DNA of 64,000 nt from an uncultured Desulfospira sp. (GTDB lineage Bacteria; Desulfobacterota; Desulfobacteria; Desulfobacterales; Desulfobacteraceae), in assembly GCA_963663165.1 (NCBI GenBank), contig OY760175.1, forward strand, positions 4,192,001-4,256,000. Direction: 5' to 3'. The notes beneath the pieces were generated by a model. The model searched no databases. It was not told the DNA's origin and worked only from the letters and a program-made list of their open reading frames with translations. Of this stretch, positions 82-41,679 are shown piece by piece; the first letter of the stretch is position 1; every line of letters begins with the position of its first letter. The translations under genes were made by a program, and so were the position numbers.

Positions 82-600
82 TTATTTTAGTTCAGCCATT
101 ATTCTCTTCGGTGGTTCACTACTTTGGTGATCGGCGTCGGAGTTGAGAGATTTCTTAACAGCGGATTCAGCTCTAAACGAAATACTTGATGATTCAAGTT
201 TGAAGAGTGCATCTGTAATACCCAAACGAATGATATCATTCTTTTTATGCCCAAGACTCAATCTCATTATTCGTGTAAGGTTTCCGTATGCCAAAATCTC
301 TTGTTCTCCTTCTAACGTTGCTCCTTTACTCCAAAAACTTATTAATGATTTAACAACCTCCGGTTCACCGCAAGTAATGATCCTACTTTTGGCATCATTC
401 AAGGCAGCCAAATCGATATTTTCATTTGTGACATCTCCAAGCCGTCTTGAAACGGCAAGTCTCGAAGCTGCAGCTAAAAAGTCTGAATAGGATTGAATTT
501 GAAATTTCAACAGTTCACTTCTTTTATTCCGTGCGGTTGTTAAGTAGTGTGTAATAAAGGCTGCTATAATCGCACTAATAAATGATAAAAATATTGTCAC
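82..600 (-). CDS. Integron cassette protein, hypothetical, N-terminal membrane anchor
   Basis: 172-aa ORF with GTG start and AAGGA RBS, AT-rich, bounded by attC sites; hydrophobic N-terminus. Confidence 0.75.
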   Translation of the reverse strand: MTIFLSFISAIIAAFITHYLTTARNKRSELLKFQIQSYSDFLAAASRLAVSRRLGDVTNENIDLAALNDAKSRIITCGEPEVVKSLISFWSKGATLEGEQEILAYGNLTRIMRLSLGHKKNDIIRLGITDALFKLESSSISFRAESAVKKSLNSDADHQSSEPPKRIMAELK

Positions 601-614
601 GAGTTTCCTTTACC

Positions 615-744
615 AGCTAACGCGGAGCTGAGGGGCCAGGCTTTTAAACCCCAAAACTCTCGATAAAAAGTTGAATTTTCCTGAACCAAGCACTCCCAAA
701 AGGCCGCGCAGTAAGCCTGGTCCCTCTCCAGCGTTTTGTTCTGC
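615..744 (-). repeat. attC site (~130 bp) of cassette 2
   Basis: AGCTAAC (615-621) ... GTTCTGC (738-744); imperfect palindrome (GCTGAGGGGCCAGGCTT / AAGCCTGGTCCCTCTCCAGC). Confidence 0.9.
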
Positions 745-748
745 AAAT

Positions 749-1150
749 TCAGCTGGTTAATAAATTGGGGATTTGTTTTCCTCGTTCAAAAATTATTTTT
801 TCACAGAAAAATTCCCAATTTGTATCCATTTCCGCATCATAAACTTTCAAATTTCCTTGTTCCCAACCATCTATTTGGTAATCATCAATAGAAAGTTGAA
901 CAATATCAATATCAGGGCATATAGTTATACTTCTTGGCCGTTCGATAATCATTTTGATTATAGGGATGTCATATGCATTTCGATCTTTTGTTAATTCAAG
1001 AACCATAACGTTGCATAAGTCCCCAGAAGCATCCAAATAATGTTCATATCTTAGTGACCAAATTTGTTTGTAGTTGATTAAGTTCCCGTCTGGCAACAGG
1101 TCTTCAATTTTATTGTAGCCAATAAATGTTTTTATATTTGCTGGTATCAT
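749..1150 (-). CDS. Integron cassette protein, hypothetical (acidic, immunity-protein-like)
   Basis: 133-aa ORF between attC sites; C-terminal IDD..DGWE..KVYDAE..EFFCEKI pattern. Confidence 0.7.
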   Translation of the reverse strand: MIPANIKTFIGYNKIEDLLPDGNLINYKQIWSLRYEHYLDASGDLCNVMVLELTKDRNAYDIPIIKMIIERPRSITICPDIDIVQLSIDDYQIDGWEQGNLKVYDAEMDTNWEFFCEKIIFERGKQIPNLLTS

Positions 1151-1158
1151 TTTTAATA

Positions 1159-1285
1159 GCAGAACGGGGAGCTCAGCCGACCGGGGCGTATAACCGAGCA
1201 GGTTGTCGAAGCCAAGTTTTTTCGAAAACCAAGCACTTTCGAAAAGCCGCTAGCCCCCCGGGTCGGCTGCAGCGTTTTGTTGTGC
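1159..1285 (-). repeat. attC site (~127 bp) of cassette 1
   Basis: GCAGAAC (1159-1165) ... GTTGTGC (1279-1285); stem CAGCCGACCGGGG / CCCCGGGTCGGCTG. Confidence 0.9.
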
Positions 1286-1327
1286 AAAATGTCTTCTCCC
1301 TAAACCAAAAAGATTTATTAAATCTAA

Positions 1328-1963
1328 TCATTTAAAGGATGCTTGCCCACCTGAACATAAAGCCAACAACTCTTTACTGCTCAACAATTCCGCTGCCATT
1401 TGGCGTAAAATAATATATTGCACGTCTGGAACAGGAATGTTTTTGGGAATTCCGTCGATTATTTTTGTAATATACCCAACTGCTGGACCATTTTTAACCT
1501 GATCGTATTCTTTGGAGAGTTTTTTATCAACGTGCGCCCCTCCATCCTTATTCGCTGCCCCAAGATATATATCTCTTCTCGATATTCTCATGGTCGTTTG
1601 TAATATTGATTGGTTAATCCATGTTTTTATAGAAACGTCTGTATATTTAGTATCGTTAAATCTGCATGCGGGGACAAAATGGGTTCCTGGAGTAGGGTGA
1701 TTACAACCAATTGCGTACATACCGCCAGCCATAAATGCAAGCTTGTCGTCGTCTTCGCCATCACCTACAGTAGATGATAATTTAATATCAGAAGCTTTTA
1801 AGTGCTTTAATAAAGATGTAGAATTTTTGGTATCGTGAATTAACACCCTTATCGTTGTTGCAATTCTAAGCCCTTCATCTTTAAATCCTTGATCGAAAAG
1901 AATGCTTGATCTATGAAGAAACCCTAATTGTTCTTGTAATTTTTCTTTAAAATCAACAGCCAT
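1328..1963 (-). CDS. Integron cassette 1 protein, hypothetical
   Basis: 211-aa AT-rich ORF with AAGGA RBS; contains RVLIHDT and ANKDGGAH motifs. Confidence 0.75.
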   Translation of the reverse strand: MAVDFKEKLQEQLGFLHRSSILFDQGFKDEGLRIATTIRVLIHDTKNSTSLLKHLKASDIKLSSTVGDGEDDDKLAFMAGGMYAIGCNHPTPGTHFVPACRFNDTKYTDVSIKTWINQSILQTTMRISRRDIYLGAANKDGGAHVDKKLSKEYDQVKNGPAVGYITKIIDGIPKNIPVPDVQYIILRQMAAELLSSKELLALCSGGQASFK

Positions 1964-2138: not shown

Positions 2139-2212
2139 GCATTAATTGCAATTTTTGGGTATTATTTTACACAACTTGAACTACCCCCAGAAAGATATTG
2201 GATACCTACCAT

Positions 2213-3607
2213 ATGAATCCGGCAAAATCAACACACGAAAACGAAATCAAAAGATTTTGGGACAATTACATTAATCGTTTAGAACATGCTGGTATTAAAA
2301 GTAATGTTTCCAGGTGGTATGTGATCAGAGCCGAGCAGTATATCAAGGCTTTTCCGGATAAGCGTCTGGCCGATCATAACCCTGAGGACGTGGTCTCCTA
2401 CCTGGAGCAGCAGGGCCGGGCCGGCCGGATTCAGGACTGGCAGTTCCGGCAGCTGGTCGATGCTATACAGAATTTATTTTCCATGCTTGGCGTATCCTGG
2501 CTGTCGGATGTAGACTGGCAGTTCTGGATGGATTCAGCCGCGTCCCTGACAGAAGTTCATCCCACAGTTGCCGGCAGCCTTCCGGCTAAAGCAACCATTG
2601 AAAAATTATCCGGCCGAAAAGGCTCACAGCTTTCCGCTGTCCGCAAACTTCATGCAGATCTTCTGGAAAAGCTGCTGATCGTCTTGCGGACGAAGGGGTA
2701 TTCCATAAGAACCGAGCAGTCTTACGAATCCTGGGTAAGCCGTTTTATTGAGTTTTGCCAAAATCAGGACCCGGCCGGGCTTGGTAAGGTTGAAGTGGTC
2801 TCCTTTTTGCAACATCTGGCTGTTGGGCGGAATGTGGCGGAGAGTACCCAGAACCAGGCGTTGAATGCCCTTGTCTTTTTTTATGACAAGGTTTTGGAAC
2901 AGCCCCTGGGGGATCTTGGGGATTTTGTCCGGGTAAAACGCCCTAAACGGCGACCGGTTGTGCTGACCCGGATTGAAGTGGCAAAACTGATCGACCACAT
3001 GGAGGGCCGCCAGAAACTGATGGCCTCCCTGCTTTATGGCACCGGCATGCGGCTGATGGATTGTATCAGGCTCAGGGTCCAGGATATTGATTTTGGGTAT
3101 TATCAGATTGTGGTCAGGGACGGAAAAGGCAAAAAAGACCGGGTAGTTCCATTGCCGGAAGGGCTTGTCAGCGATCTTACGGCCCATCTTGAAAAAGTTC
3201 GTAAACTGCACGAGGCAGATTTGGAAAAAGGGTTTGGAGAGGTCTATCTACCCTATGCCTATGACCGCAAATCCCCCAAAGCGGCAAAGGAATGGGGATG
3301 GCAGTATGTGTTCCCCAGCGGACGGCTTTCCGTTGATCCAAGGAGTGGAAAAACACGCCGTCACCATATTCACGAAAATGGTCTTCAAAAAGCCGTGAAA
3401 AAAGCGGCGCAGCAGGCCCAGATTACGAAAAGGGTAAACTGCCACGCCCTTCGCCACAGTTTTGCCACCCATCTTCTGGAAAGCGGTTATGATATCCGTA
3501 CCGTGCAGGATCTGCTCGGCCATGCCAATGTTTCAACAACCATGATCTATACCCATGTGCTTAACCGGGGCGGGAGAGGCGTAAAAAGTCCCTTTGACGT
3601 GCTGTAA
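2213..3607 (+). CDS. intI: Integron integrase with N-terminal extension
   Basis: [28 protein letters not shown] and LGH..TTMIYTH motifs, plus the integron-specific insertion [21 protein letters not shown] at 2213 (TTG at 2198 is an alternative). Confidence 0.95.
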
Positions 3608-5465: not shown

Positions 5466-5528
5466 CAGGGCAATCGCATGTAAAAGAAAGCCATCTCTTC
5501 CGGAATTGAAAATAAGGATAATCTCCAA
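5466..5528 (+). repeat. Left part of a ~222-bp MITE-like palindromic repeat interrupted by the RIT element
   Basis: CAGGGCAATCGCATGTAA...ATAAGGATAATCTCCAA; inverted counterpart ends at 9811; the ATAAGG..CTCCAA part is collinear with 41659-41679 on the minus strand. Confidence 0.75.
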
Positions 5529-5633
5529 TTATGTAGCGTGTTTGATTATGTTGTGAGTTTTATTCATTTTTATTCAAAAAGATTTTTCAAATCTTTCATT
5601 TTATTCGTATAATTCCAAATCATATGCATAGAA

Positions 5634-5662
5634 AAAGCCCGGAGTAGCCCCTCCGGGCTTTG
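5634..5662. terminator. Hairpin in the RIT leader (terminator-like)
   Basis: AAAGCCCGGAG-TAGCCC-CTCCGGGCTTT perfect stem with A and T runs. Confidence 0.5.
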
Positions 5663-5756
5663 ATTGTGAACTCCCGTCGATAGCCGGAGAAGCCCACACA
5701 CACAGTTATATTTCTATATCATTTTCCGGTTATCTGCAATACCGGAAAAATCTAAA

Positions 5757-6143
5757 ATGCTTTTAATTCCAAATACATGCCGATGGTGCCATTTCGTATT
5801 TTTTGTTTGCAGGTTCTGCTGGAGAGGGCAGGCCTATTGTTGCAGGGACTGCCGTAAGGCCGGAATCCTCAGAAACAAAAGAGAAGCACAGCGACGATAC
5901 CGCCAGACCGAGAAGGGGAAAAGACGGCATCGGGAAGCCGAGAACCGGCGTCGGCATCGAAAAAAAATTCAAGAGACAAAAAACATGGATGATACAGCTT
6001 CCACAGTGCTGCCTGCTTGGTGTAGGACAATAATATTGTGGATTTTGTTTCAGATTCAGGGCCTTCCAATCAAACCATATTGTCAATTCTGCGGCTCTTC
6101 AGGTCAAGTCGTCACACAATTTCCCCGGCGGGGATATGGATAA
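5757..6143 (+). CDS. Cys-rich (putative Zn-binding), basic hypothetical protein in the RIT element
   Basis: CxxC-CxxC-CCxxC cluster, Arg-rich helix, C-terminal CQFC. Confidence 0.7.
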   Translation: MLLIPNTCRWCHFVFFVCRFCWRGQAYCCRDCRKAGILRNKREAQRRYRQTEKGKRRHREAENRRRHRKKIQETKNMDDTASTVLPAWCRTIILWILFQIQGLPIKPYCQFCGSSGQVVTQFPRRGYG

Positions 6144-6165
6144 ACGTAAAAACTGGAGGCGCGGC

Positions 6166-6576
6166 ATGGTAAAAAAAGAAATCCTGAACCCTTCAAGGGT
6201 GCGTTGTATCAAAGGAGGATTTAGTTTTATCCCCCATCGGTTTCTTACGGGTGGATTTTTGCGAGCATTAAGCCGGGACGAGTTGTTATTGTATTTTTTC
6301 CTGGTTCTGGCCGGTGACCGCAACGGATTAAGTTTTTACAGTTATGATAAAATATGCACCCTGCTAAAAATGCAACTGGACCAGTACATTGAAGCTCGGG
6401 ATGGATTGATGGAAAATGATCTGATTGCCTTTGACGGCACCATTTACCAGGTGCTTTCCTTACCGGCCAACCTTATACAATCTGCTGTACAAAAAAAATC
6501 TTCCCTGAACAGCCGTCAACCTGAATCAGTTGGAAAAATTTTGAGCAAACTGGTTATGGAGGCCGATCATGGTTGA
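6166..6576 (+). CDS. Putative helix-turn-helix protein in the RIT element
   Basis: GGAGG RBS; FSFIPHRF...LLLYFFLVLAGDRNGLSFYS pattern; overlaps the start of recombinase A. ATG 6136 is an alternative start. Confidence 0.7.
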   Translation: MVKKEILNPSRVRCIKGGFSFIPHRFLTGGFLRALSRDELLLYFFLVLAGDRNGLSFYSYDKICTLLKMQLDQYIEARDGLMENDLIAFDGTIYQVLSLPANLIQSAVQKKSSLNSRQPESVGKILSKLVMEADHG

Positions 6577-7486
6577 GCAGACACCCAAAAGTCCGCCCGG
6601 TTATGATCTGGATCAGATCCGCCGGGATTATCTGGACCATATGCTTAAAATCAAGGAAAGCTCTCCTTCTCAAACCTGTTGCAGGACCAAAATTATCAAA
6701 GCGTTTGACAGTTATCTGCAAACATCGGGAGTCTCACTGGTCAATATAAACATAGGGCATGTTGATGATTTTCTGGCAAGGTTCAATGCCCCATATGCAA
6801 AGAGTACCCAGGGGGTATACCGTTCCTGTTTTCGAGGCTTTTTGCACTACCTGTATAATGAACGGCATTTGATCCAACAGAATTTAGCCCCGCTTGTGAC
6901 CGGTCCGCCAATGTTTGCTCAAGTCAAGCCTCCTAAATTTTTAAGACCCGGTGAAGTCCGTCAGTTATTTGATCATTTGCCCTGTGCAACATCCAAAGAG
7001 CTTCGTGTCTATGCACAGGTTCACCTGGCTTATTATCTTGGATTGCGCCCCATTGAAATCAGCCGCCTTACTCTGGACGATATCTGTTTTGCCAAAGGAC
7101 TGCTAAACCTGGAAAACACAAAAAATGCAAAGCCCCTTCAATTGCCCATTCCCGATGAAGTTATCAAAGCAATCACCGCTTATATCGTTGGAGGCAGGCC
7201 TAAAAGTCAGTCTCGCTCTCTTTTTTTAACCAGCCATTGCCCACCTTACAGAGCTGTAAGTGCCTGGCTCACCAGGCACGATTTAACAAAGGCGTTGCGG
7301 GCTGCCGGTCTTCCCGGTACAGGATATTGGCTGCGCCACACCTTTGCACAAAACATGCTGGAAGCAGGTGCCGGCATTTTTGAAATCAAAGAAATGATGG
7401 GGCATTCCATCATTGATTCCACAAAAGTATATCTAAGTATCCACAAGGAATTGATGCGCCGGGTGTTGTTCGATGAAACCGTTTAA
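6569..7486 (+). CDS. Tyrosine recombinase, RIT subunit A
   Basis: LGLRPIE, TKNAK, YWLRH and MGH..TKVY motifs. Confidence 0.9.
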   Translation: MVEQTPKSPPGYDLDQIRRDYLDHMLKIKESSPSQTCCRTKIIKAFDSYLQTSGVSLVNINIGHVDDFLARFNAPYAKSTQGVYRSCFRGFLHYLYNERHLIQQNLAPLVTGPPMFAQVKPPKFLRPGEVRQLFDHLPCATSKELRVYAQVHLAYYLGLRPIEISRLTLDDICFAKGLLNLENTKNAKPLQLPIPDEVIKAITAYIVGGRPKSQSRSLFLTSHCPPYRAVSAWLTRHDLTKALRAAGLPGTGYWLRHTFAQNMLEAGAGIFEIKEMMGHSIIDSTKVYLSIHKELMRRVLFDETV

Positions 7487-8447
7487 AAGCTTTTTGGCCA
7501 CAGAGATGGAAAACTTTATTGTTTACCGGCAAGGACTGGGATACAGTTGCCATATGCTCCGGTGGGCCTTGCTTACCTTTGACGATTTTTTAATGAGGCA
7601 GCCGGATCTCTCAGACATTTGGATGCCCCATTTTTATATCACCTTTAAAAATGAGATTGGCCTTGAGCCCTCCGGCGTAGCCAGCATTCTAAATGTAGTT
7701 CGAGGCTTTTTTGATTATCTGAAACGGCAGCGGATAAATCTTGATAACCCTTTGAAAGATGTGACCGCTCCGGCCCGACGCACCTTCATCCCCTTTATAT
7801 TCTCACCGGAGCAGGTAGAAATGTTACTGGGGGTGGTATGCGGACGGATCCGGCAAACCCCTATGCGGTTCCTTAAAGATTACAGTGAATATCTGGTGAT
7901 CCTTCTGCTTGCCCGCTGTGGGCTGAGGATGAATGAACCCTTGCGCCTGAGATTGAAAAATTACCGGCCGGATGAAAAGACGATTTACATAGAGAAAACC
8001 AAGTTCAAAAAGGACCGTCTTATCCCTATTCCAAAATCAACTGCCATGCAGATTGACAACTATCTTTCAACCAGGGCCGCTTTAATTGAAAACGATATGA
8101 ATCCCTACCTGTTCATGGAGATAGGGGAAAACGGCTTGAACGATAACCGTATTCGCTCTGTTTTTCACGATGCTGTGCGTCAAATCGGGATCCGCCGCCC
8201 AAGGAAAATTATCGGCGACACGACCTTTGGGAAGCCCACTCCGCACTGTTTACGGCACTCTTTTGCCATTAACACCTTGAAGGCAGCCATTGCCCGGAAA
8301 CAATCACCCCGGAATGTGCTGCCGGTGCTTGCCGGCTATATGGGTCATGTTGAGTATAAATACACCATGGAATATTTGAAAGCAGTTGATGCTGAAAGCC
8401 GCGACAGCCTGTTCAAATTTACCACCGGCAGAAGGGATGAATCATGA
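7473..8447 (+). CDS. Tyrosine recombinase, RIT subunit B
   Basis: PFIFS, CGLR, TKFKKDRLIP, HCLRHSFA and LAGYMGH..TMEYL motifs; overlaps both neighbours. Confidence 0.92.
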   Translation: MKPFKSFLATEMENFIVYRQGLGYSCHMLRWALLTFDDFLMRQPDLSDIWMPHFYITFKNEIGLEPSGVASILNVVRGFFDYLKRQRINLDNPLKDVTAPARRTFIPFIFSPEQVEMLLGVVCGRIRQTPMRFLKDYSEYLVILLLARCGLRMNEPLRLRLKNYRPDEKTIYIEKTKFKKDRLIPIPKSTAMQIDNYLSTRAALIENDMNPYLFMEIGENGLNDNRIRSVFHDAVRQIGIRRPRKIIGDTTFGKPTPHCLRHSFAINTLKAAIARKQSPRNVLPVLAGYMGHVEYKYTMEYLKAVDAESRDSLFKFTTGRRDES

Positions 8448-9463
8448 ACCTGACCCGTTGCGTTGTTCAATTTTTTGACCAATACCTGCCTTATGTCAAA
8501 GGGTGCCGCCCCAATACGATCAAAAGTTACCGGGATACCATGCGCTTTTTTTTACCGTTTGCTGCCGAGTACCACAGCGTAAAGGTCAGTTCGCTCAATC
8601 TGGAACATATCACGGTAGAATTAATTTTGCAGTTTCTCAATGAGCTTGAATCCAAACGGTCCAACACGGCTAAAACCCGGAACCAGCGCCTGGCCGTTTT
8701 AAAGTCTTTTGCCAAAATGATCCGTTTTATTTATCCCGAGCAACAAAAACTGACCAATGCGATCCTTGATATTCCCCGGAAACGAAGCCAACACAAGTTG
8801 ATCGGATTTTTGTATCCCCAGGAGATCAATCAAATCCTTAATGCGGTCCAACTTAAAAGAAAGGACGGGTTCCGAGATTATACCCTTCTGTATCTATTAT
8901 ATGATACCGGTGCCAGGGCAACGGAAATCGCTACCCTTGAGATGGATTATTTTGATTATGAAAATCAAACTCTGGCGATTCTTGGGAAGGGTAACCGATA
9001 TCGACAAGTTCAGTTGCTTGGGAAAACAGTAGAGCTTATGCATCAGTATATTGAAGAACATCGCAATACGCCAATCCATCCGTTTAAAAAAAGGCTGTTC
9101 ATCAACCAAAGAGGAACAAGCTTGACCCGCCACGGTATCAACCGGATCTGTAAAAACTACCTTGAACAGGCTTTACCGGCAAAGCGGACAGCGACCATGC
9201 ACCCCGTCCATAGCTTCCGTCATTCGTGTGCCGTTCGAATGCTCTCAGAGGATCGGCCTTTATCTGAAATTAAGAATCGCTTGGGGCATTCTAATGTCAA
9301 ATCCACAATGGTTTACTTAAAGCTTGATCTAGGCCAGAAGCGACATTTACAAGAGAACTTCATCCAGTTCACCAAACAGCACCTGAAATCTGATCCGAAA
9401 ATTGAGGAGTTGATCCAGTGGGAAAACAAGCAAAACGTTCTTGAGTGGCTGGATAGTCTATAG
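8444..9463 (+). CDS. Tyrosine recombinase, RIT subunit C
   Basis: NTIKSYRD, TRNQRLA, YDTGARATE, GKG, HSFRH and LGH..TMVY motifs; ATGA overlap with subunit B. Confidence 0.92.
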   Translation: MNLTRCVVQFFDQYLPYVKGCRPNTIKSYRDTMRFFLPFAAEYHSVKVSSLNLEHITVELILQFLNELESKRSNTAKTRNQRLAVLKSFAKMIRFIYPEQQKLTNAILDIPRKRSQHKLIGFLYPQEINQILNAVQLKRKDGFRDYTLLYLLYDTGARATEIATLEMDYFDYENQTLAILGKGNRYRQVQLLGKTVELMHQYIEEHRNTPIHPFKKRLFINQRGTSLTRHGINRICKNYLEQALPAKRTATMHPVHSFRHSCAVRMLSEDRPLSEIKNRLGHSNVKSTMVYLKLDLGQKRHLQENFIQFTKQHLKSDPKIEELIQWENKQNVLEWLDSL

Positions 9464-9646
9464 ATCCTTACAGACTTCATCACCAGCACTCCTCAGGGCA
9501 AACTGTAGCTGTTTATTATGTTTAGTGATTTGTTGCAAATTTGTCATACCCTTGATAACCCACTGTTTATTTGAACGATTTTGACTTACGGCATTACGGC
9601 GCCCAAACCACGGTCAATCAAGGCTTCAGGACCGCTCGCAACATAA

Positions 9647-9811
9647 CTCCAAAATAATGGACTTGGGACTTGGGATATGGGACTTGGGGATTGCCGTATC
9701 CATGGCCTCCCCAAGTCCCAAGTCCCATATCCCAAGTCCCAATTTTATACATTATTATCCTTATCACCCAAATTGGCATCACCAGCAGACAAGTTACATG
9801 CGATCTCCCTG
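9647..9811 (+). repeat. Right part of the MITE-like heptamer-palindrome repeat
   Basis: (GGGACTT/GGGATAT)n - spacer - (AAGTCCC/ATATCCC)n hairpin, then TTACATGCGATCTCCCTG; homologous to 41500-41664 (minus). Confidence 0.85.
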
Positions 9812-41499: not shown

Positions 41500-41679
41500 C
41501 AGGGTGACCGCCTGTAACGTTCGTACCGGTAATGTCGATTCGGATGATAAGGATAATAATGTATATTGTTGAGACTTGGGATATGGGATATGGGACTTGG
41601 GGAGGCCGTGGATGCCGCAATCCCCAGGTCCCATATCCCAAGTCCCAAGTCCAATTTTTTGGAGATTAGCCTTATCTTC
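41500..41679 (-). repeat. Uninterrupted copy of the heptamer-palindrome repeat (empty RIT target)
   Basis: Collinear with 5508-5528 joined to 9653-9811; single CTCCAA at 41659-41664 (minus). Confidence 0.85.

Follow-up and report, generated by a model that had tools for sequence, protein, structure and literature searches.

A multi-copy RIT element of an uncultured Desulfospira sp. found mostly in a hairpin repeat rich in matches to its probable short target site

Elements of the recombinase-in-trio (RIT) type are defined by three adjacent, overlapping tyrosine recombinase genes in the order A-B-C (PMC3414803, PMC2864759). They have been described in radC, in IS66 and in other transposase genes (PMC3414803, PMC10214605, PMC5737581, PMC8138268, PMC5385486 and PMC2864759 taken together), and both their target specificity and their movement and its mechanism are listed as untested (PMC3414803, PMC5737581, PMC10214605). 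In this work we have analyzed a RIT element located in a stretch of 64,000 nt (the window) from an uncultured Desulfospira sp. (contig OY760175.1, positions 4,192,001 to 4,256,000). Like the described RITs (PMC3414803, PMC2864759), it carries the three genes in this order, occurs in multiple identical copies and is inserted into other mobile or accessory DNA. Eight copies are present in the genome (G000), most of them in a dispersed repeat with an inner hairpin. We consider it probable that the element is an active multi-copy RIT with a short target site, a lineage-specific 6-bp core between weak AT-rich arms, and that the repeat is its richest substrate. Most of the best matches to this short site in the genome lie in the repeat, which is the likely reason for its being favoured; the preference for it looks like a by-product.

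The hexamer CTCCAA is present twice, at 5523-5528 and 9647-9652, enclosing the element, which begins with TTATGTAGCG (5529-5538) and ends with the inverted partner of this box (9637-9646). Ten of the first 12 bases of the terminal inverted repeat are paired, with little match further in. After deletion of 5529-9652 in silico the restored site is identical to the minus strand of 41500-41679 in 155 of 184 columns (84%), without internal gaps, which bears out the original prediction of a collinear empty copy of the target in the window. The element ends and the 6-bp core read from that comparison also hold: different boundaries in other copies had been named as the observation that would speak against them, and all eight copies are 4,124 bp long, 99.855-100% identical and share the same termini. 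The proposed Xer-like arrangement of inverted arms around the core is supported as well. The interval originally singled out, 5466-9811, runs exactly from one terminal inverted repeat (TIR) to the other of a surrounding unit that resembles a miniature inverted-repeat transposable element (MITE). In sequencing run X1, possibly the source sample, there is about 8-fold depth over the RIT element, and in run X3, from a second study, the element forms a single 4,130-bp contig spanning exactly 5523-9652.

Six of the eight copies lie at the same base and in the same orientation in the hairpin repeat, each within a diverged repeat copy; one of the other two occupies an attC-like site between cassette-like genes, as read from the sequence, and the last one breaks a vapC-like gene. 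In pairwise comparisons of the six repeat-borne copies, the left flanks (40 bases) differ at 2-29 positions and the right flanks (100 bases) at 0-12, whereas 5-6 of the 4,124 element bases deviate from the window copy. Divergence is much greater in the flanks than in the elements, and six separate insertions are therefore deduced. The divergence extends right up to the junction, which argues against a single insertion that spread later, either through an ISAs1-like transposase that mobilized MITE and RIT as a composite or through homologous recombination of filled with empty repeats. Two copies do reside in complete MITEs, one of them with a 9-bp target duplication, and RIT copies do recombine, as the flank swap in genome G461 (see below) illustrates; but both TIRs were found in only two of the six host repeats, the two copies outside any repeat have the same ends, and we judge later spread to be quite improbable. 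The copy in the vapC-like gene (G000:5568541) later received an IS701-like element, inserted 4 bp inside the left end with a 4-bp duplication; loss of the left flank was rejected for this copy since the IS701-like insertion explains its appearance. The genome contains two more RIT families, B with the hexamer TGGTAT and C with GTCTAT, neither of them in the hairpin repeat.

Of 1,939 CTCCAA sites in the genome, 41 are repeat-borne (35 empty, 6 filled). The probability that at least 6 of 7 fall in the repeat is 6e-10 over all CTCCAA sites and 7e-7 over the 547 intergenic ones (38 repeat-borne); the copies are kin, but their insertions are separate. Chance and survivorship are therefore unlikely. 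Survivorship would mean broad insertion with survival in the repeat because it is intergenic and harmless, and would fit the observation that long open reading frames (ORFs) contain only 3 of the 50 hairpin sites, vs an ORF coverage of 81%; the enrichment among intergenic sites argues against it, as does the fact that related RITs often break genes, and we regard it as improbable. The original prediction had proposed a safe landing pad and had named a lack of enrichment for the repeat among other copies as the contrary case. Its enrichment part is real, with six of eight copies in the repeat, but a dedicated safe pad is not needed, because in an arm profile made without this element 17-18 of the 20 best-ranked CTCCAA sites are repeat-borne.

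The profile describes 12-bp arms and was trained on other RIT families only, with none of this element's sites. Built from 22 left and 16 right non-A arms, it gives the six filled sites ranks between 2 and 13 among the 1,939 and places 18 of the top 20 in the repeat, a result reached in none of 1,000 column permutations; built from 46 left and 47 right arms it ranks the six sites 5-16. The left arm also predicts occupancy among the 41 repeat copies (area under the curve, AUC, 0.87; p 0.002), and the effect persists among the 22 copies with the strongest hairpins (p 0.011). The empty copy in the window has the 20th arm score of the 41, below every occupied one. High-scoring empty copies are located at G000:5827228, 3828642, 5832991 and 4108590. 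Right flanks of related RITs match the repeat in 0 of 47 cases.

Alternatively, the repeat itself might be recognized: the recombinases would be recruited or activated by its hairpin, either in cruciform shape or as a single strand at the fork, or by a hairpin-bound protein, and the switch of the lineage to CTCCAA would be adaptive. All six occupied repeat copies belong to the half with the stronger hairpins (22 of 41), independently of the arm score; the seventh copy is found in the attC-like site with a poor arm score, and the lineage has long RitA and RitB branches and a derived hexamer inside the TGCAAG clade. We nevertheless consider recognition of the hairpin unlikely, as none of 43 other RIT targets lies beside a strong hairpin, the insertion point is at the flank of the hairpin and not within it, the eighth copy is in a plain gene, and CTCCAA is likewise the core of two distant RITs, which lie outside the repeat in genomes without any detected copy of it. 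A contribution of the hairpin on top of the short site may exist.

The relatives between them use more than 15 different cores; TGCAAG, GATAAT, GGCAAG, GGGACG, GTGTCA, TAGCAG and TTGGAG are among those found elsewhere. The hexamers are equal at both ends in 30 of 36 other elements with both ends, in 5 of 5 more, and in 6 of 8 copies of the window element family, the two unequal cases being the copies at G000:5568541 and 6122073. At the informative mismatched junctions the target hexamer stands on the left and the carried hexamer on the right in 3 of 3 cases. In the vapC-like gene the left hexamer encodes Leu, as in two homologues, and the right one Gly; in copy B1, for which no empty orthologue was found in two genus-mates, the left hexamer restores a frame of 213 codons and the right one gives a stop; at locus L154 the homologous empty site bears the left hexamer. 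In the mechanism that we propose, the recombinases would bind TTATGT boxes, and the two element ends would be joined in a predicted circle around a 6-bp spacer derived from the left junction of the donor. Upon integration the left side would retain the target hexamer and the right side would receive the carried one, following the SE/Tn554 rule, with mid-core mismatches occasionally tolerated.

Several observations weigh against a short site as the sole basis of the repeat preference, or against the proposed mechanism. Hairpin strength predicts the occupancy of repeat copies too (AUC 0.85, p 0.003), and this effect is seen among the 13 repeat copies with good arms (p 0.02), partly independent of the arms. 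The copy in the attC-like site reaches only rank 124-377 under the main 12-bp profiles; profiles of 8-bp arms are weaker (ranks 13-49), training on distant clades only gives ranks 10-362, and with foreign A-like arms alone the weighted model leaves P 0.002 for 6 of 7 being repeat-borne. Moreover, the training arms include kin and repeated sites. The left/right polarity is drawn from three cases; L153 and L155 are ambiguous, A8, L026, L031, L133 and L165 could not be polarized, and L167 was dropped from the set as its two flanks do not belong together. The elements with GTCTAT do not form one clade in the RitC tree. Finally, neither the circle junction nor the empty donor site was seen in the contigs of four sequencing runs, a form of data that drops rare forms.

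Across genomes the hexamer tracks the RitB tree, also between elements with different left-hand cargo. In this quick tree the TGGTAT pair has an SH-aLRT support of 100 and the GTCTAT pair of 99; the RitA tree and the RitC tree (FastTree) agree for TGGTAT, not cleanly for GTCTAT. TGCAAG is kept across elements that are 69-82% identical, even though insertions with mismatches occur at times, and of the two hexamers of B1, L154, A8 and L026 it is the left one that comes closer to the lineage norm; together this favours a built-in preference. Against it stands the physical linkage of the hexamer to the right end, and homology-guided choice has a precedent in GInts, in which matching 6 nt to the target raised integration tenfold (PMC5385486). 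Also against it, a search for convergent residues that could explain CTCCAA in two distant clades yielded 1, 0 and 0 columns in RitA, RitB and RitC, no more than in controls. On balance we lean slightly towards a hexamer preference inherent in RitB/RitC rather than homology with the carried spacer alone. A DNA or RNA guide inside the element could also specify the hexamer, given that the latter is a stable lineage trait and that no convergent protein residue was found. Such a guide is very hard to credit: among 15 aligned elements no homologous position carries each one's own hexamer, the one internal CTCCAA of the window element lies in a coding region, and a search of the hairpin against Rfam gave only sub-threshold microRNA matches. 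A more far-reaching idea, which we put forward tentatively and as less than probable, is that the RIT subfamily consists of integrases with a switchable 6-bp address, that a new carried 6 bp would retarget them, and that one lineage, by its switch to CTCCAA, became locked onto a MITE family that makes fresh harmless sites, its own spread then following that of another transposon's miniature.

All three recombinases, encoded adjacently on one strand (Table 1), exceed the PF00589 cut-off, and the closest match of each within a Cupriavidus plasmid trio (L212; E 3e-23, 2e-17 and 5e-52 for RitA, RitB and RitC) is the protein at the equivalent position; this trio is called a RIT by its layout, not by annotation. 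The genes overlap by 14 bp (ritA/ritB) and 4 bp (ritB/ritC), against 4-8 bp in the definition of RITs. The catalytic R, RH, GH and terminal Y are present in all three proteins, with W at the usual first-His position in RitA. RitA proteins have been described with two core-binding domains (PMC8138268); the 305-aa RitA aligns with residues 117-413 of a 415-aa relative, so that the N-terminal part is missing and with it the two-domain layout. As judged from its sequence the element is a RIT variant, because its RitA lacks about 110 aa and its terminal repeat spans only about 12 bp. Compared with the described RITs (PMC3414803, PMC2864759), RitA has 305 aa vs about 415, the terminal repeat about 12 bp vs 28-34 and the element 4.1 kb vs 3.5, with two extra ORFs inside it. 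ORF1 was not detected in many related RITs. ORF2, for which the fold search gave nothing below E 0.001, is absent from some of them and is apparently dispensable. An IS21-like element (G000:C1:5582836-5583691, L002) encodes a homologue of ORF2 (46% identity) and, by eye, one of ORF1; the two ORFs may thus be an accessory pair common to unrelated mobile elements, RIT and IS21-like. The TTATGT boxes of the left end are likely binding sites for the recombinases. A promoter scan was uninformative (3 matches vs 1.5 expected). No match was found in viral contigs, nor in plasmids at 1e-50; at 1e-25 the plasmid hits had about 33% identity.

Table 1 Features of the RIT element, its host repeat and the empty repeat copy (window coordinates)
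Feature	Position	Strand	Basis or remark
Left TIR of the MITE-like unit, starts CAGGG	5466-5483	+	Resembles TIR of the resident ISAs1-like insertion sequence
Left part of MITE; last ~12 bp predicted left target arm	5484-5522	+	Flank comparison, arm profile
Left core CTCCAA	5523-5528	+	Probably the target's own hexamer (polarity cases)
RIT element body	5529-9646	+	Same ends in each of the 8 copies of the genome
Left end with a direct repeat of two TTATGT boxes (5529, 5546)	5529-5553	+	Sequence; conserved in relatives
ORF1, 128 aa, Cys-rich	5757-6143	+	No Pfam or NCBIfam family
ORF2, winged-helix-like (HTH_36-like)	6136-6576	+	Weak fold matches, E at least 0.02
RitA-like tyrosine recombinase, 305 aa	6569-7486	+	PF00589; ~110 aa shorter at the N terminus than RitA proteins of 415-420 aa
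RitB-like tyrosine recombinase, 324 aa	7473-8447	+	PF00589
RitC-like tyrosine recombinase, 339 aa	8444-9463	+	PF00589
Internal TTATGT box, 120 bp inside right end	9516-9523	+	Conserved in relatives
Right end box, inverted partner of left end, 10/12 terminal bases matching	9637-9646	-	Sequence
Right core CTCCAA	9647-9652	+	Probably brought in by the element
Predicted right target arm (first ~12 bp), then GGGACTT/GGGATAT heptamer hairpin	9653-9745	+	
Right TIR of the MITE-like unit	9794-9811	-	
Empty repeat copy, single CTCCAA	41500-41679	-	Right TIR present, left TIR absent

The host repeat has two layers, outer TIRs starting with CAGGG and an inner heptamer hairpin (z -7.4), which occurs without TIRs too. 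For ISAs1-type MITEs a target duplication of 8-10 bp is expected. Target duplications of 9-11 bp, with one mismatch allowed, accompany 17 of 37 TIR pairs, with no clear duplication at the window copy itself. The TIRs of the resident ISAs1-like insertion sequence (2,777 bp; 10 PF13808 matches) are similar, and its duplications measure 9-10 bp; an autonomous partner transposase with identical TIRs was not found. The repeat thus displays the TIR likeness, the duplications and the insertion polymorphism of an ISAs1-type MITE. It is, by comparison of genomes, mobile and older than the RIT invasion, because the genus-mate G001 has the repeat family (83 matches), no close RitC, and neither MITE nor RIT at the window locus. 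Six of 14 PF01797 matches were examined for a link to REP-associated tyrosine transposases (RAYT), and none is bracketed by the heptamer hairpin; a full MITE lies about 1.5 kb from one of them, on one side. At G000:C1:1448279-1448737 inverted GGGACTT heptamer arrays stand on both sides of a four-helix-bundle (PF05635) gene, and the inner hairpin of the repeat looks like a gene-less version of this unit. About 12 hairpin copies hold a conserved non-coding insert of ~250 bp with further hairpins (in G000 for example at 1627141-1627487, 1710123-1710485 and 4104412-4104796), and a CAGGG-MITE copy with a 10-bp duplication (G000:C1:2421228-2423515) contains a group II intron reverse transcriptase ORF.

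Elsewhere in the window an integron integrase with an N-terminal extension (2198-3607, plus strand; TIGR02249 above cut-off) adjoins short cassette-like ORFs (82-1963, minus strand). A dehydrogenase gene comes after the RIT; just upstream of the same gene in G001 there is a three-copy tandem repeat of ~85 bp (L058, G001:C1 ~895450-895720). Further RITs were observed in this genome and in others. A different RIT type is present in eight copies (L063-L070, G005), each of which interrupts an integrase gene at its catalytic His-x-x-Arg-His motif and has a palindrome to one side. Several RITs of the GTCTAT/TGGTAT type insert at the edge of another multi-copy element, the end of which resembles a recombinase site (G000 near 2026900, 2888920, 894880, 4448400 and 1737200; L151, L154, C0 and C1). 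Three left ends of TGCAAG-type RITs (L008, L017 and L035) have a similar flank of ~45 bp, which suggests another repeated target in G011-like genomes. L033:597-1026 (430 bp) is a RIT derivative that lacks genes but retains both ends and is flanked by GATAAT on either side. In G461 the flanks of two inverted RIT copies, L153/L186 (2.61 Mb) and L155/L188 (5.39 Mb), are swapped and cross-joining restores a gene, which points to an inversion of ~2.8 Mb by recombination between RIT copies. The same genome offered a candidate donor-daughter pair, with ATCTAT on the left in one copy and on the right in another; it fits the polarity rule and was rejected, as the single-nucleotide polymorphisms show no parentage and the flanks were swapped by recombination.

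The value of the system lies in a testable target rule for RITs. The genome and its relatives give exact ends, the 6-bp core, arm preferences, a left/right rule and ranked empty target sites, and excision and integration assays can therefore be designed directly. With a switchable core the RIT family would supply retargetable site-specific integrases; with a protein-set core the specificity determinant could be mapped by means of close relatives that differ in their cores. In the literature searched there was neither a lineage-specific RIT hexamer nor a RIT in a MITE; the main RIT survey (Ricker 2013), which may include part of this, was outside its coverage.

The host repeat resembles ISAs1-family MITEs in its TIRs and target duplications. 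Unlike a plain MITE of this family it carries interchangeable inner hairpins, the heptamer hairpin being found also without TIRs and also flanking the four-helix-bundle gene. The RIT element shares with SE elements and Tn554 (PMC10214605) the 6-bp spacer between inverted ends, the target hexamer on the left and the carried one on the right, and the lack of mobilization genes. A further mark of SE and Tn554 is a strand-biased circle that leaves no empty donor site. It differs from them in having neither Tfp nor a large IntB/TnpB, its recombinases all being of 305-339 aa, and a winged-helix-like ORF2 instead of Srap/TnpC. The two hexamers are usually identical in the RITs analyzed here, unlike in SE, for which copy-out and circles have been shown (PMC10214605), whereas for the window RIT they are predicted. 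GInts (PMC5385486), compared by description only, are likewise three-integrase islands with 6-nt staggered cuts, but have four gin genes, large cargo and conserved gene targets.

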